From: Cyanidioschyzon merolae
Taxonomy: Eukaryota
DNA: 64,000 nt
NCBI GenBank assembly: GCA_000091205.1
Contig: AP006500.2
Reading direction: 5' to 3' (one strand)
A program made the translations under genes and the position numbers. The notes beneath the pieces were generated by a model. The model did not search any database. It was not told the DNA's origin and saw only the letters and a program-made list of their open reading frames with translations. Below, one piece after another: positions 1-47,335 of this stretch (positions within the stretch are counted from its first letter, which is position 1; each line of letters begins with the position of its first letter).

Positions 1-979
1 TCACTGCGCTCGGTATCGTGAGCCAGAGCAAGGCCGTCGACGCCGAGGCAGTGTCTGCCGTAGCCTGCGGGTACACGCGACACGTCGCTAGCTGCCAGAG
101 CGTCTCTAGCCAGTTGCTCGTATCTGACGACTGTGAACGACACTGCATTTCACCGTGCCGACTAGGACGCTGGTTCCGGGTTGTCGCCCGAGAACTCAAG
201 CGGCCACCTTGCAGAAAGTTTGGCGGAAAAGTCATTTCCGAGTATTCGTACCTTGGGCCGCTTCCACACGCCTCGTTCAGGTTCTATCAAGTCTTTGGTG
301 AGATCCTTCTCCTCTACATAGCGTTCGGGCTGTGCGGTTACGAGGTTCGGGGTCGGTCGGTTTTTCGGTTTTGTGTCGAACGCAGCGTTGCGTTGACCGG
401 GGCGGGTCAGCGGTCGAACGCTTGCTTGACCAACCTGACGTATCGGTGAAGTTGCTCGCGAGTGCGCTCATGTATTTACCAACTTGCTTGCCTCTATTAT
501 GACAAAATCATAACTTGCTTGCTTGCTTGCACGCTACTCGAGCGCAAACACTATGACAGCGTTTTCGCTGCCTCTACCGCGAACCGCCCCCGCGACTGGC
601 AGTACGCTTTTGCGTCCACGAACGGACCCAGTCAGTCAGCGAACAAGAACTTCGCCTCGTCATATGCGGGTCTAGGTATCGTTTCGCTTCATGGACCAGC
701 TGTTCGAGTAGGTCTTTCAGCGAGTCTGGTGCCCACGAGAATCGCCATCCAGATGAACCGCAACAACTGCGGTTCCAAAGTGCGCAGCACCCTCAGCATA
801 CGCTGAAACCCAGGTACTGCCCGGGCATGGTGTACCTGATGCGGCTCACCAGTGTGTTTCCTGGACTCGGGAGCCCGTCGACGATGCCCACGCCTCCTCG
901 CGAAAGCGTCAAAAGCGAAAGCGGACATGGACGAGCCGCAACGCCAACACTGTTTACAACGCGAATGCTCGCAGAGCTT

Positions 980-2035
980 CTATCGCCGGCCGTGCCATGA
1001 GCGTTTTCGAAAGTTGATAAACCAGTTAGATACTTGTTTCACAGACACACCAGTCTGGGCACTCAACTGAACCTTCACCGCGTCACTTGGGTACGGGTGA
1101 TCCCAGTGCGCTCTGGCCCAGGCTTCGAATACAGCAACGGCATGCTTCGGAAGCGGGGTTCTTCGGCGCGAGCTCGCCCGAGCAGGTTCTTGCGAGAGCG
1201 CTGCTCTCAGCGGAGTCGTTTGATCACCGGATATCGAACGATTCGCATAAGCGTCTCGTCTCAGTATATGTGTGGTCGGAGTCGGTCGTCCCGAGGCAGG
1301 GCACGCACATGTCGATGACGGGCATGCCGTGCTCCGATGCACTCCAGCGGCACGCGGAGATTCCCAGCAAGGAACGCCTTCGTGGAGCACACTGGTGCCC
1401 GCACAGATACGTAGGCGCTCGATCGGCAATGCCCTGGGCAGTGGTGTCGTTTCCGCAGTCCCGAGGCGCCCAGTCGAGCGTCCGTCGAAACCGTTGCGAC
1501 TGGGCTCGACCGCAGAGCTTGAAGCTGCGCCCGCCGAGAAGCATGGACGCAGTCGGCCGCGTTGAATGGAGACAACATCAGCCTCATGGGCGGAGTGTTT
1601 GCATTCGGTGAGGTTCTGGCCTGCAAGTGCCGACTCCCCAGCTTCGTAACAGATCACATCGCGCTGAAAGTCATCCGAGTTTGCTGACCCGGGCGCAGAG
1701 CACAATGCTCGCTCACCAAGAAACAGGAGCGCAGCCTCGACATGAGCGTCGCCGTCATCGTCGAATGCACCACCTGTTCCCGCGTGCTCGACATGGCTCG
1801 GCGCTTGCCAGTCACAGACCTCGCTTTCTCTGGACGAAAAACGCAGACCGGGCTGCGCTGGAGCAGATGTTACAGATCCTGCTACTTGATTCGAATCCCA
1901 TTTCCGCGGTATGTCTTCCGACTTTCTCGTCTTGTAGGTCATGAGGGTTTCGCTTGACCAGCGCTTGACGGCAGCAGTCAAGTTGACTACTGAGTTGACC
2001 ACTCCGTCTGCGGGTGAGCGCTGTCGACCATGCAC
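980..2035 (-). CDS. TALE-class homeobox protein, KNOX-like. The C-terminal homeodomain reads '...HWDHPYPSDAVKVQLSAQTGVSVKQVSNWFINFRKRSW'.
   Basis: A 351-aa ORF. Its C-terminus carries a TALE homeodomain with the three-residue loop extension (P-Y-P) and the WFIN-x-RKR recognition helix. The spacing and the 'xHPYPS...NWFINxRKRxW' pattern resemble KNOX-type homeodomains. A (CAT)n/(ATG)n repeat lies just upstream of the ORF start. Confidence 0.6.
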   Translation of the reverse strand: MHGRQRSPADGVVNSVVNLTAAVKRWSSETLMTYKTRKSEDIPRKWDSNQVAGSVTSAPAQPGLRFSSRESEVCDWQAPSHVEHAGTGGAFDDDGDAHVEAALLFLGERALCSAPGSANSDDFQRDVICYEAGESALAGQNLTECKHSAHEADVVSIQRGRLRPCFSAGAASSSAVEPSRNGFDGRSTGRLGTAETTPLPRALPIERLRICAGTSVLHEGVPCWESPRAAGVHRSTACPSSTCACPASGRPTPTTHILRRDAYANRSISGDQTTPLRAALSQEPARASSRRRTPLPKHAVAVFEAWARAHWDHPYPSDAVKVQLSAQTGVSVKQVSNWFINFRKRSWHGRR

Positions 2036-3175
2036 TAACCACCACCATCATCATCATCATGATCATAATTGCTCTGGGATGACGTCGTTTTCATGATGAC
2101 CAGTTCACAACCCTTGCCCGAATCCCTTCTCCTGCTCGCAGCGGCTACCAGGGCATACCCCCAGCGGCATCCACACAGCCGCTGCAGCAGGCGCTCCAGC
2201 TGATCCGCGCGACCCGCGTACGGAGGGCGCCAAGCGCGCGTGCATGACGACCGTTCCGCGGGCCACGCTGACGGGCGCGATCGATGCGCCGCGGCGATCG
2301 GACGCGAACGCTATAGGCGAGTGGAATATTCATCCATAATTGTTCTATAATGTTCTAGTTTCTTGATTGGCGAATCACGCCCTGGAGCGCGGACGCTGCA
2401 CTGCGGATGATGCCGCTTGCCGCACCAGCGTGCGCTGCAGGCTCCTATCCGAGGTGTGCGTGCGTGCGTGCGTGCGTGCCTATATACAGGGACACGTGTC
2501 CCGTAGAGGCATACGTGTCCGAATGGCGATTCTTCGAAGCGTCACGCATGCGGCAATAGCGGGTGCGTTTCGCCTCTGAGAACGTTCCGCTACGTCTCCC
2601 AGCGTACTTGTCAGTGCAGCGTATACCTCGTGCGTCTTCGATATTCAGAACTGCACGCATACGCATGCGTCGTCGTGCGCACAGAACCTGCACGTCGACG
2701 GAAACAAAATGCATAGGATGGAATGCCCTGCTCACGGTCGCTTTGATGGGCTGTCTTCGGGCCACCAGGCGTCATCAGCAGCAGAGCGATCTCATGGTCA
2801 TCGGGCGGGTGCTGTAGGCATGCACTCGAGCAACCAGTACTGACCTGGTACCCGCGATTGCCAGTCTCCCGAGCATCTGCAAGCGCATTATACTACACGT
2901 GTCCTGGTCTGCGATCTGCGCAGGTCGGGCCCCGGGTCCCAGAGCACGAGGTCGTGAGATCAATGCACTCGCTCACGGAAGCTTCAGAAAATGATGGATA
3001 GCGGCTTGAACATGTTTGGGGAAACCGCGCGAAACAGCAAGAGATGCCCGGCGAGCACATATACGCAGAACTGGACGAGAGCATTCCTGATTCGCAAGGG
3101 CATCCCTAGGGGTGCGCGCACACCGTCCCGTACCACGCGCTGGGGCTTGCCGGTCTCGAGGACGCATCCTGCCCG

Positions 3176-8570: not shown

Positions 8571-9380
8571 ATGTGGGGAAGTTTACGCCTCTTGTCGCGG
8601 ATCCGCGTCCGCAACGGTTTGCCAGAAGCGTCTACTGGCAGACCGCTGATCAACCTGAGGTGTCGTTCGATGCACAGCAGCCAGCGAGACAACCCTGCAA
8701 CGCAGACAGACGTCGCTGGGACCCAGCGCGCACTCAGTTCCGTTGCTGCTGCGGTAGCGGCGACGGCTGGGTCCGCCAATGCCAACATTCCGCTGCCTGA
8801 CTTGCCGTACGATTATGACGCTTTGGAGCCGGTCATCAGTGCAGAGATCATGCGTTTGCATCACACCAAACACCACCAGGGCTACGTGAAAAACCTGAAC
8901 AACGCACTGAACACGCTACACAGTACAGACCACGTTCCAACGCTCATTTCGCTGCAGCCTTCACTGGTATTCAACGGAGGGGGCCACCTCAATCACTCGA
9001 TCCTTTGGACGAATCTGGCTCCAGTCGGGAAGGGAGGCGGCGAGCTCCCGGATAAAGATTCACCCCTATTGAAAGCCATAGAGAGCGATTTTGGTAGCCT
9101 GAACAATTTCATGAGCTTGATGAACACTGCCGCAGCTGGGATTCAAGGTAGCGGTTGGGCCTGGCTCGCCCTGAATCGGAACCTGCGGCGACTGGACATC
9201 ATCACTCGGTCGAATCAGGATCCCGTCGTAGGGGCCTACACACCGCTCCTCGGTATTGATGTTTGGGAGCACGCCTATTATCTCCAGTACAAGAGCGATC
9301 GCGCAGCATATCTGAAGAACATCTGGCAGGTCATCCATTGGAAAGATGTCATGAAGCGTTACGAAGCTGCGATCGCATGA
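8571..9380 (+). CDS. Manganese superoxide dismutase (Fe/Mn-SOD family) with an N-terminal targeting extension
   Basis: Diagnostic Mn/Fe-SOD motifs are present: 'LHHTKHHQGYVKNLNNALN', 'GGGHLNHSILW' and 'DVWEHAYYLQYKSDRAAYLKNIWQVIHWKDV'. The true start is probably the internal Met near position 8670 (MHSSQRD...), followed by a presequence rich in A, S and R. Confidence 0.9.
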   Translation: MWGSLRLLSRIRVRNGLPEASTGRPLINLRCRSMHSSQRDNPATQTDVAGTQRALSSVAAAVAATAGSANANIPLPDLPYDYDALEPVISAEIMRLHHTKHHQGYVKNLNNALNTLHSTDHVPTLISLQPSLVFNGGGHLNHSILWTNLAPVGKGGGELPDKDSPLLKAIESDFGSLNNFMSLMNTAAAGIQGSGWAWLALNRNLRRLDIITRSNQDPVVGAYTPLLGIDVWEHAYYLQYKSDRAAYLKNIWQVIHWKDVMKRYEAAIA

Positions 9381-25045: not shown

Positions 25046-25359
25046 GTCTGTCTCGATGCCCTCCCAAATTCAAGAAATAGGAGTCCAGCTCGAAGAACCA
25101 AGCTTCACCAAGTAGCCTTTTTGAGCAGAGCACGTCCCTGGTTCGACAAATGGGAGTACCACGAACGACAACCGCCTTTCAAAAGAAAAACGCTGTCACT
25201 GGCCGTATACAGTCGTGGCGGCGAATGCGCGTAGACAAAACGCCTCCAACTGACGCGCAGACGCTTCCGAGGCTTTCTCGACCGGCCACCCACGACTGCT
25301 TCCAATTGTTTCTAATATAGTTCCACTTTGGGATGTTGTCCAACAATGTTTTCTCATGT

Positions 25360-25884
25360 CTACGCTGGAGGTCTCTTCTCCAGCACCGCACATCTCCGGA
25401 TATTGATTGCGGCGTTAAAGTCTCGGTTCACAAACTCCATCCGTTTCTTGCCATCGTTGGTTGTACTTACGAATGCGAGTAGCCCTCGAACTTTCGCCCT
25501 CCTTTCCATTTGCTCCTCCGTCAGCGGTCCGAACTTTTTTATATCCTCAGGGCTCCGCTGGCACTTTTCCATATCGACCCGCTGGAGTGTACACCTCAGC
25601 CCGTGGTGTGTATACGATGTTCGGAACTCATCTACAGGTATCGTAACGAAACGCCTTGCGCACTGCTTGTACGTTCTTGTCGTTGGAGCTGGCGTACACC
25701 CTTTTCGGGTCTTCCAGCGCCCTGCTCCGCGTGCTACTACGAGCCTCTGACTTTTATCCTCTTTGAAGGCGCTCATTGGAAAAATTCGCAGATGCACGCT
25801 GCCTCCCACCGTATAGATGAATACGTAGACGAGCCCAAAAGGGCTTTGTGTACTCTTTCCACAGCGCCTCACAATGAGCAACAC
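25360..25884 (-). CDS. TnpB/Fanzor-like nuclease, C-terminal segment (OrfB Zn-ribbon region + RuvC-III)
   Basis: '...[30 protein letters not shown]...[28 protein letters not shown]'. The Zn finger appears degenerate (HH...C...C instead of CxxC...CxxC). Confidence 0.7.
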
Positions 25885-25975
25885 GAATTTCCATGAATTT
25901 CAGAAACGCTTTAAAGTCCGCTCCGCGGCAAGTCACCTCGCTCAAAGCTTCCCGGTGATCCTTCATTCCATCGTT

Positions 25976-26578
25976 CTACGTCTCAATTTTCTTCCTTGCA
26001 TTCATGATTCCCGATTCTCGATAGTATCTCGCTCTCGAGAACCTCAACAGACGCACGTCTTTCTGACGCAAGTTGCCGTCGGTATCATCTCCCCCACGCT
26101 TGGGTACAGCGACGGTTATAATATTCGTGTTCCCGGGGTCCGCGCCACCGACAAAGCAATTCTCATGCACTTTCCGCGTCGCAGGACCCGCCTCCTTCTT
26201 TTTTTCATGCTTCGTCGCGCCAACCGTAAAGTCGTTAGCTTGCACTTTCTGTGTCGCAGGATCCTTCTCCTTCTCATCTTCATGCTTCGTCAGCGGCGGA
26301 ACTGGACGATCCACCTTCAACCGCCGATAGTGTACACACAGGGCTACTCCATCGGTTTCGATCAACCCAGTGAACAACTTTTGCTTGCTTATTTTGAGAC
26401 GTTTGAAAACGAAGATATTCTTCCAGTGCATCTCCCTGTTCTCACCTGTGAACTCTGCCCTCCTTACATCGAACTCGGGACTGATCTCCTTCATGATGCC
26501 ATGAAGGACTCTGGAGCCGGTAGTAACAAAATGTGACTTGATGGTGCACATTGGAACGACGTTGGAGCGCTTCCCCAT
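25976..26578 (-). CDS. TnpB/Fanzor-like nuclease, central segment with the RuvC-I motif
   Basis: '...[51 protein letters not shown]'. It contains an internal tandem duplication of ~66 bp (26160-26290; '[16 protein letters not shown]' / '[16 protein letters not shown]'). It is out of frame with the downstream segment, indicating a frameshift or a small intron. Confidence 0.65.
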
Positions 26579-29500
26579 TAGGGCCGCCTTCCGTCTCTCC
26601 CACTCTTCATTTTTTCGTCACTCAGCTTTATTTCCGCCTTGCGTTCTGGCGCTCGGTCCAGAAACGCGAAATAGCACAGAATGAGGCGATAGTATCTTTC
26701 ATTATCTTTTTTCAGCTCTGATATCTTTTCTCTTGAATTCGCCAGCCCCGAGACTGCACGGTGCTCTTGTATAACAGCACGGATTACAGAAGCTTCATTC
26801 GTGCTCCTGCGTGATTTCTTCTCGTCGACGAATTCGATCTAATCTTCATGCTTGCGATCGTTCGTGATACCGTTGATAATCGCCCATATTCCTTTGCGAG
26901 ACAGGCCCGGGTAAATTGCAAACACGGCGCATATCATAAAACGTTCGAGGTTCATCCTCAAATGCTTCTTCAGGTTCGTGAGGTACTTCATCGCCCCGTA
27001 TGTGTAAGTATCCCGGTCACCCCTGTATCGAGTACCCTCGAAGCGGAATTCCGCGAAGTTTTCGTGGAGGACGTGCACTAGCTCATTTTCCGTCCGCGTT
27101 TCCCCTGTGCCAAGCATCAGGTGACGAATAAAGGTCTTGTCGAAAACTCGTCCGGAATCTCGACTGTTTCCGTATGCGCCACGTCTTCGTACATCTCCCT
27201 CGCCATATGCATGACTCCTAAAGAAGCCTTTATAACACTCATGGGGTACGAATCGACACGGTTCCTGATAGCGTCTCGCAACTTTTCCTTGTAGGGATCC
27301 TTGATATGTTTACGAAGACAGGCGTTTACCACCATCTCGTCGTACTTTCGTCTTTCGTACAGCATGTAAAGTCGGGTCTCCTGCCTTAGCTTCTTCGTCT
27401 TCTCCTGCTCCACTTGGCTCGGCACTCTGTTTCGCTTTCTCTGGCAGCCGGCGAGGTTGTACCACCGGTATCATCCACTTGCTTCTCCATACGTTTCCAT
27501 TTTTGAAAAAGAACGCGCTTTGATCGCTTCTGCTATGTAGCGCGAAAAATCAATCGAATACACCCCCCCTGAGGATTGAAACACAATGGAACTGAGAAGC
27601 TATACTTGCGGCCACTTTCACACAAATACACCCTGTACGATAGAACAACACGCGAAAGATCAGAATCGCGTTTCCCTTCAACGGCGACATGCGCGTCATG
27701 TCTCGTGACTGCCGGATCTCCCGGGTGCGCGTATCGAGCGCACTATGTACCAACAAGAACATAGACTAACGATAAACTACCAACGATACAAAAATTCCTT
27801 TCCCCTCTACGATAAACGTTGAACGTGGGAAACCGCTTCCGTACTGTCGAAAGTTAGCCTTCTTGACGGAAGGTCCCGCGAGCCGGACGAGTCTGTCACG
27901 TTTGTGTTTCATGCTGCACTCAGTGGCAGGTACTTCAGTGGCAGGTACTTCAGTGAAATCTGAGCCACTCGTCCGCAACGCAGTTTCCTCTGAGACTAGG
28001 GGCAGTTAAGCTGTGTCTGGGCGTCGCCCATGTTGCAACTATCTCCGAGCATATCGCTTGGCGCTGCTGCAGGCAGTAGGGCTGTCTGCCCAGTTTTCAG
28101 GCTCCCAGAATGACAATTAGCTCTGATTCCGTGTCAGGTGTAGTATTCGTCGGGCCGACACCATCGGGAGTATGGCAAAGCCGTTCTGGCTACGTGCAGC
28201 ATCTGCTCCAGCGGTGTAGGCGCTGCAGCGGGTGCTCAGCGCAGGCACTCGGCACACGGTAGAACGTTCGAAACGATCAGTATACCCGAGATGAAGAGTA
28301 AGTAATGGAACTTGAAGGTAGGATGCATGATGATGGGCGCTTCCCCGAAAGCCATTATCTATGCCGCAATCTGAGATCCATGGTTCATGTAAACGTTTTG
28401 ATATCGAAAAAAAAATCGCTACCGCCATTGTCATCCCCGCGGATCCATCAACTGGTGATCGCCTCGTCCATGATCTGTTTCATTGCACAGGTCGCTCGAT
28501 GGACAAGCGTTCCTCAACTGCGCGCTTGAGATGAGCGATCGGGAAAGCATCCATCGATCTAGGTCCTGCCTCCAAGTTCCGTGGTGCATACGTCTCCTCC
28601 GAGTGTACTCGTTATCTCTTATGTTCTGTGGTATGCGTCGAGGCTGTTGTGAGCGTTTGCGATAGCGCGTGTAGCGTCGATGCGCACGCAGCCCCGAGGT
28701 CATGTCCACGAAGCGGTTTGTGTGCACGGCCGCCGATGTATTGCTAGTGAAACATGTCGATACAGTGGATCGGGAGTGCTCTGGATGCACTGGTGCTGTC
28801 GGCAGCTGGGGAATGGACACTTGTTTCTTCTCGGATATGGCAGCGTCGTGATGCCTGCAGACCAATTTCCTAGACGAGAATCGGGATTCATAGCATAGAC
28901 GCTTGAACGCTGCGCCCTATCAAACCGCTGGTAGCGGAGCCTGTGGCAGCGCGCAACCCTATACGCCCGCTCGTGCCGCGGAGCATGGCGCAGGCTTCAT
29001 GGTATTCGCGCATGCGTTCAAAAAAGGGTCCCGGAGTGCATCGCTGCCCGTTCCACTGAGGTCGCAGGCTCACCGATACCGCCTCATCGATCCTGGGGCC
29101 GTTCATATCAGTGGATGGAGGTGCTGCGTGATGAAACTACGCAGAGAGGTTTTACCTGGATTCAGACTGCAGCAGGAAGCACGCCTTCGTTCAGTCTCGA
29201 GAGTGCTTGCCTCAGCAGCAGCGCAGTGTCATTTGCCATGAAAACCTACGCAGGTGTCCCAGCGGTCCAGCGTCGCGAGAGGCTACGGATAGCAGCTCCC
29301 CCCGGATCGATGCAGATGCAATTGCGGCTAGGCGAAACCGATATCTGTGCCCGGCACGAATCGTGAATGTGGATACGTATACGGATGCATCCATAAGTGC
29401 GTCCATCGCTCGCCAAGGTCGATGCAGCGTCCGTTATTGCGCAAAAAACGACGATTCCGTGGACCTTCAGCGAAAAGGCGAGCTGCGCTCCACATTCCAT

Positions 29501-42949: not shown

Positions 42950-43650
42950 ACAGCTAGAACATAGTTCCGGAAAAGAATCGAACTGGATGAACAAAGCGAG
43001 TCATCCCCTACTCGATTTTATCGTCAGCGAAATGAGAAATGTTCTACGATAATTGAGGGTGTATGAATACATACATACGCAGACGCCTCCCAGCCTTGTT
43101 TTGACCGGTTCCCCGATACCGGTTTCAGCTTCTCCCTGTATACTTCGATCCTGAGAGGCTGCTGGACAAAAGTTGGACCGGGGCAGCTTCGAGGGTCACG
43201 TCCCCGGTACCAAACTTCTTCTGATATTGATGGCGGCGTTGAAGTCTCGGTTCACGAACTCCATGCGTTTATTGCCGCTGGTGAAGCGTATCATTGCAAA
43301 GATCCCTAGAACTCGTACCCTCTGTCCCAGTACAATCTCGCTATCGTCCCATCGGACAAACAGCTGTTCTCGAGTATATATCCCCTGTTCTTGTTCTTCG
43401 TCACTTGCTTTTCTTCGCTAGATAGTCGACGAGAAGAGGATCTTTTTCGGTTTTTATCCCGGTCGCCAGCGACACCAGCCCTCTAGAATCCCCGACTCCC
43501 ATGTCCATACGGTTCGCTTAGATTTCTTATTTCTTCAAATGAACGCTTTTCGGACGCTTCGATTACAAACCGAGAAAAAGCGTTTGATGCGACGCACCCG
43601 GAGATGGCGCACAATTCAAGAAAGCGTCTACAATCTGACACGAGCCCACC
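42950..43650 (-). repeat. Truncated, diverged copy of the Fanzor/TnpB-like element 3' region (copy C)
   Basis: The reverse complement of 43201-43260 encodes '...[20 protein letters not shown]'. The reported plus-strand ORF 43173-43421 is the antisense frame of this. The flanks align to copy B ('cttcgatcctgagaggctgc', 'gcagacgcctcccagccttgttttgaccgg', 'ttatttcttcaaatgaac...ccgagaaaaagcgtttgatgcgacgcacccgg'). Confidence 0.7.
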
Positions 43651-44692
43651 GCGGCTCGAGCAGGCAACGTACGCTCAGTGCCGCCTTTCGCTTCCTCGGT
43701 GTCGGTCTGGTACCTGGGCGCCACGAATGGGGCGCTGCAGCTCGTGTCGGAACAAGACGATATACTTTTGCTATGTAAATCGAGAGTTTATTTGCTTGAA
43801 CTGCGTGTTCCAGCCGAGGTATGAACTTTCCGTTGTGCGCTCGTACAAGGAATGGATTCGAGACTCGAGCTACGAGCAGCCTCCACGTTGTCCGTTTACC
43901 GGAGCGCCTCTCCGACACGGTGAGGAGCTGGTTCGGCTACCACCCCCTGACCTACGTGTGGTTTCCGCCGCGGGACTCGCAGCTTATCTTCGTGGGCGTT
44001 TCGGCCCGGACACAACACCAGCAGGATTCCGTTCGAACGAGCTGCCTTTCGGGTTGGTGCCGGACCCGCAGGATGACTCTGCAGTGGCGCAGCGTTTGCG
44101 GAGGTTCCTCGCGTTGCTCGGCTATGATGCAGCTCTAGCCGTAGCAGAGCCGCTGGAAGACAAACGTTCGAGTCCCGGCACCGTCTCGGCAGAGGGAGGC
44201 ACGCAAGCCGCCAGCGAGGCAACGCTGTTGGAGCGGCGCCTCCCGAGCGAGCAACGCCCGGTGTCTCGCCCGCTGGAGGCCACCACAGAGGCCGTGAGTC
44301 GCACGGCGCCGCGAACGGGCTCCAACACAACGATCGTGGTGGAGTCTCACAAAACCTCCGAGCCCGACTCCACGACAGCGATCGCTCCGGCACGGAAGCA
44401 GAACGCTGCTGGTCGTACAGCGGATAATGACAGCAAGGAACGCAAAATACGACAACAGAAAATACGGCGGTTCCTCAACTTTTTAGGTCAGAGCGCTGAA
44501 GTGCTCCCTTTGCCACATCCACGACCTAATCGTCGAAACCGTCGTCTGACGGGGCTCGCGCTGTCCTTCGGCTTCGGCGTGGGTATTTTAGTGTTTCTCG
44601 CGTACGTGGTTCGTCATGGTCTATTCAATCCGCTGGCTTTATGGGAATATGTCGTCGAAAGACGTCAGGGCATGTTGAGCGTTGAGCGTTGA
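43604..44692 (+). CDS. ZFPL1: ZFPL1-like (zinc finger protein-like 1) tail-anchored Golgi protein
   Basis: The N-terminal Zn-finger/RING-like region 'CSSCRNKTIYFCYVNREFICLNCVFQPRYELSVVRSYKEWIRDSSYEQPPRCPFTGAPL' matches the ZFPL1 pattern ('...NLFCFEHRVNVCEHCLV...CIVQSYLQWLQDSDY...C..C..PL'). There is a single C-terminal transmembrane helix, 'LALSFGFGVGILVFLAYVV'. Confidence 0.7.
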   Translation: MAHNSRKRLQSDTSPPRLEQATYAQCRLSLPRCRSGTWAPRMGRCSSCRNKTIYFCYVNREFICLNCVFQPRYELSVVRSYKEWIRDSSYEQPPRCPFTGAPLRHGEELVRLPPPDLRVVSAAGLAAYLRGRFGPDTTPAGFRSNELPFGLVPDPQDDSAVAQRLRRFLALLGYDAALAVAEPLEDKRSSPGTVSAEGGTQAASEATLLERRLPSEQRPVSRPLEATTEAVSRTAPRTGSNTTIVVESHKTSEPDSTTAIAPARKQNAAGRTADNDSKERKIRQQKIRRFLNFLGQSAEVLPLPHPRPNRRNRRLTGLALSFGFGVGILVFLAYVVRHGLFNPLALWEYVVERRQGMLSVER

Positions 44693-46249
44693 AAGCGCTA
44701 CTCGAAACAGCGAATCATCCCAGCGAATGTGTACCTCATGGAACCGTGTGCGCGCTTTTCACGCAACTGCTCGCTGCTCGCTATGCTGCCCAGACTGCAC
44801 ATAGCGCGTTGCCTCGAGCAGTATGCCCATATTCGCTCGATATACGAATGGCGACCTGTTCAAGGGCGAAGCGCAAGCTCCCGGCGTACGCGCTCTTCGT
44901 CAAGTGCGTCACGGCGGTCTCGTATGTGCACACGCCAGCGTCAAGCTGCCCGGAGAGAGACTGCAGCGCCCTGCCGCCGTACCACAGTGGCCTCTGGGCG
45001 CCCTACTCGGGCGATAGCCATGATCGATATCAAAGCATAGCGGAAACCATGCGGTGTCGCTTGTGCTCGCGAGGCTCCAGGGAAGATTCGTATCAGTTCA
45101 TGAACAGCGGCATGTTTTTCTTGTCGCATGAGAGCACGATGCGCGAGTCACTTCATGCGCAGCGTACAGAGAAGCAGAACTGTGTTATCCGCAGTATACC
45201 GGAAGCAGGTCGTTGAGATGATGGCGATTCCCAACTTAAGCGTGGATGCTTTTTGTCTGCTTCATAGCATATTCCGATGAATCCGCATCTGCGTATCGAC
45301 CAAGGCGCGGAAGTTTGTGTGGCGTATGCTAAGCATGCTTTGGCGAGCGTATGCTTGTAGACGAGGCCCGAAGACATTGGACGCAAGCCCGCGGACGTCG
45401 CAGCTGATACGACGCGCTCTTATGGGAAATACTTGCAGGTATCATAGCGGTTGTAAAAAACCCCCAACGAGATGCCGCTGCCAATGGTCCAGACTGTTGT
45501 GTTGCGGTGGACGACACGAACGCGCGCTGCCTCCACCTGCACCCGAGTTCGGAACAGCACACAACCACAGCGTCTAGCTCTGGTTGCGCGTAACGGCCGA
45601 AGTAGCTAGCATCCTCTGCGCTTCTGGACGGACGGTTATTCTGGGATGAACCAGTTGCGCGAGAGGATTATCGCCGCTCAGAAACAGATGCTCGCACTGT
45701 AGCGCGAGTGCTGCACCTTCCGAAAAAGCGCTTGGGCCGCACTTGCCTTAAGTGGCGGTTTCCAGTGGTGCTGGGCGCCATCGAACCCTTTGGATTGTGA
45801 GCGGGAAGAGCGGCAACCATGCAGTGACTGGCAAAGTGCACGCTGCACAACAAACCGAGCCAGACACGGAGAGCGCAGCTCATGACCTGTGCTGCAGCAG
45901 TGACCCTGCCTCGCTCACAGAGCCCAACTCGTGTCCATTGGTGAGTTCTAACAGCGACCTGCCGTCAACTATGTGTTCTACAGGTGCCTGAGACACGCGC
46001 TTCAGGTCTCCGGTCAGCGCTATGCGGGTATGGCCGGTTAGTCACCGGGTACGAGCGGACTGCAACTGACCACCGTGTTGACTGCTCAACGCGAAACAGC
46101 TCTTGCGCCGGAAAGCGCTCTCTATGAACGCTTCGACCAGGTGGTATGTTCACCCTTCAGACAAGTGACGAGTTGTATGCGTATACCAGCGACTGGCCCG
46201 GAGCGTCTGGGGCCGCGGCAACCACTACCCTAGCGAGCACCGGTACCTC

Positions 46250-47335
46250 ATGGGGCGCGCGCTCCTGAACCAGGTACCAATGGAAGCGTTCTTTATCTTC
46301 CCAGAGGAGGTCCCAGAGACTGCGGGCAACATGCTCACACCATCCAGAACGACAGAGACTGCAGAGGAAGGGTCCCGGACACTGTTTACGGTGGATAGAA
46401 ACGCAGGAAACACTGGCTCAGAGCTGCCCCTACCCGCGCTATCCGACGTGCTCACGGCGACCTCGCTGCAAGTAGATCACTCGCTGGAGAACATCGATGA
46501 AGAGATAGGATGCGGAGGAATCCCTGAAGCAAGCGCAGTAGGCCATGGCATTTCAGTCGATATAGATGCACTGGACCTCTACCTGGATATGCGGGACGGC
46601 ACGCAAACCACAGCGTCAGAGCGTCGCGCTCAGGTCGATAACGCGGAAGATTCAATAGCATCGGTAAGAGAAGTCTCGATAGATCAGCCCGAGCATTCAA
46701 GAGCCCGTTTGCTATCATGGTGTCGGAGGACGGCCCTACTAGCTCGAAACTTGGCGCTGGAATATGACGGCCCGTACAAGGATCTCGTGCGTCTGCAGGC
46801 TCACTGCTTAGCGAATCAAGTTGAGCAGCTATGGGCCGAATCGCCGTGCCGGCACGAAGCGAGAGCACCTGTCGCAACGAGACACTCAGTGAGTGCGTCG
46901 GCTTCACTGGCAACTGCTAGCGCAGCTGAACCCCGCGATACACTGTATCGATTACCGACGAATGTTGTCCAGGGTGCCTGTGATGCGTCCGCATCCGATT
47001 CGAACACTTGCTCGAAACAAGGAACTGCGGCACGATGCAAGCGGAAACGGCGGAGCTTCGGCGGGATTCACGGATATCAAGCGCGAGCAACGAAGCACCG
47101 AACACGAGCGTCTACGAACGAGTATGCCAGCCGCATTCTGAAGCAGTGGCTCCTCGATCACTTTCTAAACCCGTACCCCGGTGATGAGGAGAAGCATCAG
47201 CTCATGAGGCGAACTGGTCTCACGTACAATCAACTCAACAACTGGTTTATTAACGCTCGCGTCCGTCTTTGGAAGCCGCTGGTTGACGCCTTGGCGTGCA
47301 AACGGCAACGGCAGCAGGAGCAGCCGGGTACTTGA
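46250..47335 (+). CDS. TALE-class homeobox protein, BELL-like
   Basis: The C-terminal homeodomain reads '[55 protein letters not shown]'. It matches the BELL-type consensus ('...[48 protein letters not shown]'). Confidence 0.7.

Follow-up and report, generated by a model that had tools for sequence, protein, structure and literature searches.

The 64,000-nucleotide stretch of DNA analysed here (the window) lies on chromosome 18 of Cyanidioschyzon merolae 10D and carries two TALE homeodomain transcription factor genes, CMR153C (KNOX-Red1) and CMR176C (PBX-Red). We consider it very probable that the arrangement is explained as a whole by the known KNOX-Red1 and PBX-Red pair, likely forming a heterodimer that serves as the diploid switch, with a linkage that reflects inherited gene order. 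The window runs from CMR152C to about CMR18x (CMR locus tags denote chromosome 18), with a G+C content of 55-60% throughout and long, uninterrupted ORFs that are densely packed. TALE pairs of the KNOX/BELL type are a conserved haploid/diploid switch in green plants, and the red-algal orthologues of these pairs play a central part in the sexual cycle recently discovered in Cyanidiophyceae. CMR153C and CMR176C are single-copy, already catalogued life-cycle regulators; publications already cover both genes, their classes, their likely role and the mating-type region, so that finding them here adds nothing new in itself.

The initial annotation had described two homeobox genes in the window, and both were confirmed: the peptides it quoted are present in the ORFs at 980-2035 (-) and 46250-47335 (+), and each ORF gave a full-length match to the 40-position Pfam Homeobox_KN model (E 3.3e-17 to 3.8e-17 for CMR153C and 2e-18 for CMR176C) with a score far exceeding the gathering score. 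The first of these genes is real, but its extent had been overstated. The CMR153C ORF at 980..2035 (-) encodes 351 aa and has the C-terminal sequence '...AHWDHPYPSDAVKVQLSAQTGVSVKQVSNWFINFRKRSWHGRR' followed by the stop; the annotated CDS spans 980..1942 (-), or 320 aa plus the stop, and 980-2035 is a mechanical ORF that opens at an upstream GTG. When translated from the ATG at 1942, the product was identical at 320 of 320 residues to BAM82406.1/XP_005538442.1 of C. merolae 10D, and the 90% protein cluster of the first ORF includes this same 320-aa entry. The in-frame upstream extension of the mechanical ORF, which opens with a GTG (1943..2035, -), falls outside the annotated CDS because the first in-frame ATG is at 1942 and both the NCBI protein and that of Joo et al. 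have 320 residues; it is probably the 5' UTR of CMR153C. Versions of CMR153C with 351 aa were seen only in prokaryote-style gene calls on metagenomes.

CMR176C occupies 46250..47335 (+) and encodes 361 aa plus the stop, and all 361 residues match Cyame_CMR176C_PBX in Table S2 of Joo et al. 2018 (BMC Biol 16:136), where CMR153C is entered as Cyame_CMR153C_RKNOX1, of class KNOX-Red1. That survey counts six homeobox genes in C. merolae. The TALE genes among them number three: CMR153C (KNOX-Red1), CMH049C (KNOX-Red2, on chromosome 8) and CMR176C (PBX-Red). Hirooka et al. 2022 and 2026 call CMR176C 'BELL-related', and the label in the 2026 dataset is 'Homeobox protein; BELL-related'. Searching 5.8 billion proteins with the first ORF returned near-identical copies and otherwise only Cyanidiophyceae relatives at ~35% identity. 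The nearest relatives of the two flagged genes outside strain 10D belong to Cyanidiococcus and Cyanidium.

The physical linkage of the two TALE genes, also claimed in the initial annotation, held up: they share one chromosome and are separated by a gap of 44,308 bp. They are divergent in orientation, and about 12 housekeeping genes lie between them, including those for TMF-like, Mn-SOD, PCI, Fip1, WD40, mitochondrial carrier, plastid sigma factor, MTHFD, RanBP1, PHD-finger and ZFPL1 proteins and an unknown protein of 602 aa. A TnpB/Fanzor-like relic suspected at 25.3-27.5 kb was rejected: its one Pfam match fell below threshold (E 0.014), PDB gave no match and NCBIfam none of relevance.

A third homeobox gene, missed in the initial annotation, lies at the window edge. 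CMR152C is a non-TALE homeobox gene of 531 aa, of which the first 78 codons (1..235, -) fall within the window; it starts 745 bp downstream of CMR153C, in tandem. The translation of 1..235 (-) matches the N-terminus of Cyame_CMR152C and that of the 531-aa gene on contig L001. CMR152C matched Pfam Homeodomain over model positions 3-57 of 57 (E 2e-11), and this typical Homeodomain model fits better than the TALE model; a kinship with KNOX-Red2 was considered as a possibility, and in alignments with it the homeodomain alone aligned (pairwise E about 1e-5). The CMR153C/CMR152C tandem is kept in contigs L005 and L010.

Gene order was compared among the genera with the orthologue table of Hirooka 2026, which equates CMR153C with g552 in Cyanidiococcus (Cc), g2409 in Cyanidium (Cd) and g3492 in Galdieria partita (Gp), and CMR176C with Cc g565, Cd g2423 and Gp g6599. 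In that dataset, CMR144C..CMR205C corresponds to Cc g545..g591 and Cd g2402..g2451, a collinear run of at least 60 locus tags that is scattered in Galdieria. Local order agrees on both sides of the interval: TMF, KNOX-Red1, homeobox, cytochrome b5, L21e and S19e follow one another in Cyanidiococcus, and a Cyanidium-like contig has the same order from KNOX-Red1 through S19e, with the contig end cutting the upstream side. The order Fer2, ZFPL1, BELL ... PHD, RanBP1, MTHFD occurs in contigs of Cyanidium caldarium and in Cyanidiococcus-like contigs. The linkage of KNOX-Red1 and BELL-related in Cyanidiococcus is read from the Hirooka 2026 gene numbering together with local synteny on both sides. 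On synteny, which the initial annotation had proposed to compare among related species, linkage is common to Cyanidioschyzon (Cz), Cyanidiococcus and Cyanidium as part of a collinear block, but it is absent in Galdieria, the one genus in which function has been shown. Since the conservation in three genera follows from general, block-wide collinearity, the most fitting reading of the linkage is a gene order inherited along with a long collinear block rather than a functional locus.

Inherited order by itself leaves the origin of the 44-kb proximity, which has a chance of ~0.5% under random placement in ~16.5 Mb (a post hoc figure), unexplained. We found no discussion of the KNOX-Red1/PBX-Red neighbourhood, with or without the third homeobox gene, in the literature searched. 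It is slightly useful to record that three cyanidiophycean genera have KNOX-Red1, PBX-Red and a third homeobox gene close together, an arrangement that could be set beside the sex-linked TALE pair of Bostrychia.

One reading of this neighbourhood, which we think unlikely, is that the linkage represents an ancestral or selectively retained red-algal homeobox cluster, no mating-type locus in C. merolae but a possible source of a sex-determining region if members were lost reciprocally, as in Bostrychia. Bostrychia moritziana has just two TALE genes, which are of the same two red-algal classes and are tied to one chromosomal region, a PBX-type gene in the female U and KNOX-Red1 in the male V sex-determining region. 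In C. merolae, a span of ~50 kb holds three of the six homeobox genes, against a random expectation of ~0.06% (post hoc, and less extreme, hence inflated, should CMR152C and CMR153C be tandem duplicates), the KNOX-Red1/CMR152C tandem is kept in three genera, and KNOX-Red2 of G. partita sits three genes from the Mn-SOD orthologue of CMR158C, a neighbour of the cluster. There is thus a small chance that the series CMR152C - KNOX-Red1 ... 44 kb ... PBX-Red could preserve the ancestral red-algal arrangement of life-cycle TALE partners. If so, the CMR152C-CMR176C block and a red-algal sex chromosome's core would be homologous, and the Bostrychia U/V state would have come about via reciprocal loss. 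Against this, block-wide collinearity fully accounts for the conservation among Cz, Cc and Cd, and G. partita KNOX-Red1 (g3492) and BELL-related (g6599) lie far apart. The two genes are also not co-regulated, as their differential-expression patterns differ in the Hirooka 2026 dataset; about 12 unrelated genes intervene, and the observation is post hoc. The two systems also differ in their present state: in Bostrychia each gene is limited to one sex haplotype, within non-recombining regions of 12-13 Mb, whereas every C. merolae haploid carries the two genes in cis, within a gene-dense and recombining region that has no relation to the mating-type region as mapped.

It is very unlikely, and already largely refuted, that a mating-type or life-cycle locus is marked by the linked KNOX/BELL pair or contains it, as had been suggested for the window. 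TALE genes are present in fungal MAT loci, a precedent for such an arrangement. The same idea draws on the 44-kb distance, unlikely by chance (~0.5%), on the retention of linkage in three genera and on the TALE genes in the sex-linked regions of the red alga Bostrychia. Set against these points, the candidate mating-type region of C. merolae is on chromosome 11, from CMK076C (HAP2/GCS1) to CMK078C (~1-2.6 kb), a region that differs between 10D and MS1 Ha3 and was mapped by comparison of these two genomes and by PCR correlation with mating type; strain 10D is itself haploid, with MS1 haploids as mating partners (Hirooka et al. 2026). Both TALE genes occur together in one haploid genome, and the interval between them consists of ordinary housekeeping genes with normal, uniform composition. 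Identity among public alleles is 99-100% for CMR153C and 98% for CMR176C, and neither a second class of haplotypes nor idiomorph-like dimorphism was seen. The CMR153C-CMR176C block thus does not look like a haplotype-specific, mating-type-linked region. What survives of the earlier suggestion is a linked pair of orthologues of life-cycle regulators; its mating-type part does not, the candidate region being on chromosome 11 and the window on chromosome 18.

The proteins themselves were compared with other TALE factors. Both fit the TALE definition, having a 63-residue homeodomain with a three-residue extension (PYP) between helices 1 and 2 and a WFxN helix 3, and both homeodomains align without gaps to those of plant, green-algal and red-algal TALE proteins. 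In CMR153C the homeodomain (983..1168, -) forms the extreme C-terminus, at aa ~259-320, and matches positions 1-40 of 40 in Homeobox_KN. AF2 predicted helices at 266-278, 287-297 and 301-316 with a pLDDT of ~90. Helix 3 reads 'NWFINFRKRSW', which is KNOX-type and compares with 'NWFINFRKRHW' in the Ostreococcus KNOX protein. Identity across this homeodomain is ~90% in Cyanidiococcus-type orthologues and 50-64% in comparisons with other red-algal KNOX-Red1 proteins.

Upstream of the homeodomain, CMR153C has little that is recognisable. The MEINOX (KNOX1/2) domain that the initial annotation had proposed to seek was not found: KNOX1 (PF03790), KNOX2 (PF03791) and ELK (PF03789) gave no Pfam match even at E<=10. 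POX, PBC and Meis_PKNOX_N likewise gave no Pfam match at E<=10 in either CMR153C or CMR176C. AF2, run on a shallow alignment of four sequences, predicted the 257 residues before the homeodomain to be disordered, with no upstream helix. Joo 2018 Table S2 labels CMR153C 'KN-B/ELK', and CMR153C is missing from the hit list of the KN-B HMM search in that same study. When the N-terminus of CMR153C was compared by hhalign with those of other KNOX-Red1 proteins, the alignment had E=0.29, with the best local match placing aa 89-126 on the KN-B region. KN-A is absent, consistent with the definition of KNOX-Red1 (KN-B and ELK present, KN-A absent). The sole N-terminal motif of CMR153C that is conserved in Cyanidioschyzon and Cyanidiococcus lies around 'IQRGRxRPCFS', which belongs to a conserved segment at aa 89-136. 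The C. merolae KNOX-Red1 thus seems no longer to possess a MEINOX dimerisation domain that can be recognised, an apparent loss that bears on whether the heterodimer model holds in C. merolae. That CMR153C lacks a detectable MEINOX-type domain with which to bind CMR176C is an observation that runs against the switch model.

In CMR176C the TALE homeodomain (47096..47284, +) has a BELL-type helix 3; it was matched by Pfam Homeobox_KN, and its AF2 helices fall within 286-357. Further upstream lies the PBL-Red (PBC-like) region at aa 147-197 (46688..46840, +), a predicted two-helix hairpin and presumed dimerisation surface. AF2, run on a seven-sequence alignment, placed its helices at 147-171 and 177-197 with a pLDDT of 81-89, and a conserved block at aa ~158-193 lies within the region. 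Cyame_CMR176C is the top match (2.7e-24) of the PBL-Red/PBC motif HMM of Joo 2018 (Data S1), a score to be read with the fact that the CMR176C sequence itself belongs to the alignment behind that HMM. CMR176C accordingly has the make-up that defines PBX-Red, a PBL-Red domain upstream of a non-KNOX TALE homeodomain. The BELL/SKY domain that had been proposed for checking was found neither by Pfam, where the POX domain (SKY and BELL, PF07526) gave no match, nor by hhalign, where N-termini of the CMR176C type from Cyanidiophyceae did not align significantly with 22 plant BELL N-termini (E=0.69). The CMR176C N-terminus also showed no significant hhalign match to Madagascaria and Cyanophora PBX N-termini (E=0.73). 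Outside Cyanidiophyceae, the best matches of CMR176C are plant BEL1-like proteins with POX, typically ~45-65% identical over the homeodomain stretch; our alignment gave 55-58% identity between this homeodomain and those of plant BELL and glaucophyte/red PBX proteins. On these comparisons, the BELL-like character of CMR176C is confined to its homeodomain.

The two genes belong to separate TALE classes. Their homeodomains are 37% identical and fell into separate, supported orthogroups in the alignment and neighbour-joining (NJ) tree, which used 64 columns, 500 bootstrap replicates and reference sequences from Joo's Table S2 (STM, BP, Ostreococcus KNOX and Galdieria KNOX-Red1). Bootstrap values were 73-95% for the CMR153C orthogroup (within Cyanidiophyceae) and 77% for the CMR176C orthogroup. 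Support for the deep split between KNOX and non-KNOX was at most 48%, as is to be expected from 64 columns, and deeper CMR153C nodes had less than 35%; this split rests on the ML phylogeny of Joo 2018, where KNOX-Red1 joins Viridiplantae KNOX with support of 92/90/1.00. The CMR153C homeodomain was also searched exhaustively with phmmer against 1.84 billion cluster representatives; multi-homeodomain proteins with summed scores dominated the result, so that only single-homeodomain matches were informative. The best of these were a Cyanidium-like orthologue (64%) and bangiophyte/florideophyte proteins (52-64%), the latter carrying the KN-B motif 'F..Y..L...YE..C' and an ELK-like stretch. CMR153C groups with KN-B/ELK-bearing KNOX-Red1 proteins of red algae (P0251, P0265, P0276, P0284 and Galdieria EME30635), and CMR176C groups with PBX-Red, PBX-Glauco and BELL. 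Solved structures do not separate the classes, as both homeodomains match MEIS/PKNOX first, with TGIF and PBX also among the best.

The KNOX-type and BELL-type labels given in the initial annotation thus hold at the level of the homeodomain, in agreement with the published classes, and phylogeny did not place both genes in a single TALE subclass. That they are instead paralogues of one subclass (for example, both BELL-like), with no KNOX/BELL pair at all, is hardly credible: it can point to the name that GenBank gives the CMR153C product ('similar to BEL1-related homeotic protein'), to a CMR153C homeodomain with 48% raw identity to plant BELL and slightly less, 42%, to plant KNOX, to the shared MEIS/PKNOX best matches among solved structures and to deep NJ nodes below 50%, but it is opposed by the mere 37% identity of the homeodomains, by the separate groupings described above, by the helix 3 'NWFINFRKR.W' that CMR153C shares with Ostreococcus KNOX, by the published ML tree and by the differing N-terminal architectures predicted by AF2.

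As members of separate KNOX and PBX classes, CMR153C and CMR176C can be compared with pairs of known function. Closest is Galdieria partita, whose KNOX-Red1 (g3492) and BELL-related (g6599) genes are TALE genes and one-to-one orthologues of CMR153C and CMR176C, which Hirooka et al. 2022 (PNAS) name as the orthologues in C. merolae. In that study, BELL and KNOX-Red1 of G. partita were haploid-specific, and deleting either prevented self-diploidisation, a block on the passage from haploid to diploid that corresponds to the function we infer from orthology for the C. merolae pair. By this analogy, CMR153C and CMR176C would most likely be the two halves of a TALE heterodimer; if both proteins were present in one nucleus, the dimer may turn on the diploid (cell-walled) programme, in what would be the scheme that GSM1/GSP1 follow in Chlamydomonas and KNOX/BELL follow in Marchantia. 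In C. merolae itself, both heterodimerisation and the diploid-switch function are thus predicted by orthology.

The likeness to Galdieria has limits. The two Galdieria genes are unlinked and both haploid-specific, whereas the mRNA of CMR176C is not phase-specific in Cz. Galdieria KNOX-Red1 is short (179 aa in the G. sulphuraria orthologue, EME30635) with a clear KN-B helix, unlike CMR153C, in which the 257-aa N-terminus is predicted to be disordered and KN-B is not detectable. In the data of Hirooka 2026, KNOX (CMR153C) mRNA was haploid-enriched in Cz, Cc and Gp, and BELL-related mRNA was haploid-enriched in Gp and Cd but not phase-specific in Cz or Cc. Expression specific to gametes or mating types had been proposed for checking; KNOX mRNA is enriched in haploids of both Cz mating types. 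Neither the KNOX nor the BELL protein was detected in the Cyanidiococcus proteomes of Hirooka 2026. This proteomic result, and the BELL-related mRNA that is not phase-specific in Cz and Cc, are likewise observations against the switch model.

Lee et al. 2008, as cited by Hirooka et al., describe a pair from the KNOX and non-KNOX groups, GSM1 (KNOX) and GSP1 (BELL-related, GLX class), that runs the haploid-to-diploid switch in Chlamydomonas. GSM1 and GSP1 are expressed in opposite mating types, unlike the KNOX gene of C. merolae, which is expressed in both. GSM1 contains KN-A, besides weak KN-B and ELK, and PBL-Chloro is found in GSP1, whereas CMR153C has no detectable MEINOX and CMR176C has PBL-Red. 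In comparison with KNOX and BELL proteins of land plants, CMR153C is without KNOX1, KNOX2 and ELK and CMR176C without POX (SKY/BELL). The homeodomains are where the likeness to land plants lies: CMR153C has the same 'WFINxRKRxW' as KNOX proteins (STM, BP, KNAT3), and CMR176C has a helix 3 equal to that of BELL proteins (BEL1, BLH), with homeodomains that are ~55-58% identical.

CMR153C, which encodes the KNOX-Red1 TALE homeodomain protein, is followed 745 bp downstream on the same strand by a third homeobox gene, CMR152C, whose 531-aa product is encoded at 1-235 (-) and past the edge of the window. Its homeodomain is non-TALE and one residue longer, with a helix 3 that reads 'WFSNRRMREKR', and Joo 2018 gave it no class. 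The gene was located in three comparison contigs (L001:6243-7838, L005:11616-13175 and L010:1611-2666), and the tandem CMR152C/CMR153C pair is kept in Cyanidiococcus and in one Cyanidium-like contig. C. merolae has six homeobox genes, and three of them thus lie within about 50 kb. In the Hirooka 2026 dataset, the Cyanidiococcus gene is mildly haploid-enriched (logFC of about -1). Galdieria KNOX-Red2 resembles CMR152C in its N-terminus ('MTFP...') and in helix 3; significant alignment between the two is confined to the homeodomain.

We were unable to detect KN-B/ELK helices, the accessory regions expected N-terminal to the KNOX-Red1 homeodomain, in residues 1-257 of CMR153C (980-1942 (-)) by Pfam, hhalign or AF2. 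The protein is also missing from the KN-B HMM hit list of Joo 2018, yet it is labelled 'KN-B/ELK' in Table S2 of that study. The Galdieria KNOX-Red1 orthologue carries a clear KN-B; together, these data suggest that the MEINOX-type dimerisation domain has degenerated in the Cyanidioschyzon/Cyanidiococcus lineage. The sequence upstream of CMR153C contains two short simple repeats, at 2460-2500 and 2040-2070 (-): one is a (CACG)n run, 'cacgcacgcacgcacgcacgcaca', and the other an (ATG/GTG)n run, 'atgatgatgatgatggtggtgg'.

The Mn-SOD gene CMR158C (8571-9380 (+)) lies close to the tandem homeobox genes CMR152C and CMR153C. According to the Hirooka 2026 dataset, its Galdieria partita orthologue is the Mn-SOD gene g1160, which is three genes away from KNOX-Red2 (g1157). 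This proximity may be left over from an earlier neighbourhood of homeobox genes around SOD.

At the other TALE gene, CMR176C (BELL), gene order differs between species. Compared with the Cyanidium caldarium and Cyanidiococcus-like contigs (L006, L007, L008 and L009), C. merolae shows an inversion of a two-gene segment consisting of a ZFPL1-like gene (43604-44692) and CMR176C, together spanning 43604-47335 (+). The window reads PHD, an unknown gene (602 aa), ZFPL1 and BELL, whereas those contigs read Fer2, ZFPL1, BELL, (unknown) and PHD. Gene numbering in Hirooka 2026 is consistent with the inversion, as Cyanidiococcus g564, g565 and g566 correspond to CMR173C, CMR176C and CMR174C, respectively.

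No tRNA genes or Rfam families were found across the entire 64-kb window. Its lowest-GC stretch, at about 25300-27500 (-), has a GC content of 0.50, a GC skew of -0.14 and broken ORFs. The end of one ORF is similar to the final RuvC motif of TnpB/Fanzor-type nucleases, with a sub-threshold Pfam hit to Cas12f1-like_TNB (E=0.014) and no PDB match or relevant NCBIfam match. The stretch may be a decayed transposon relic; it also contains a 75-nt tandem duplication at 26141-26290.
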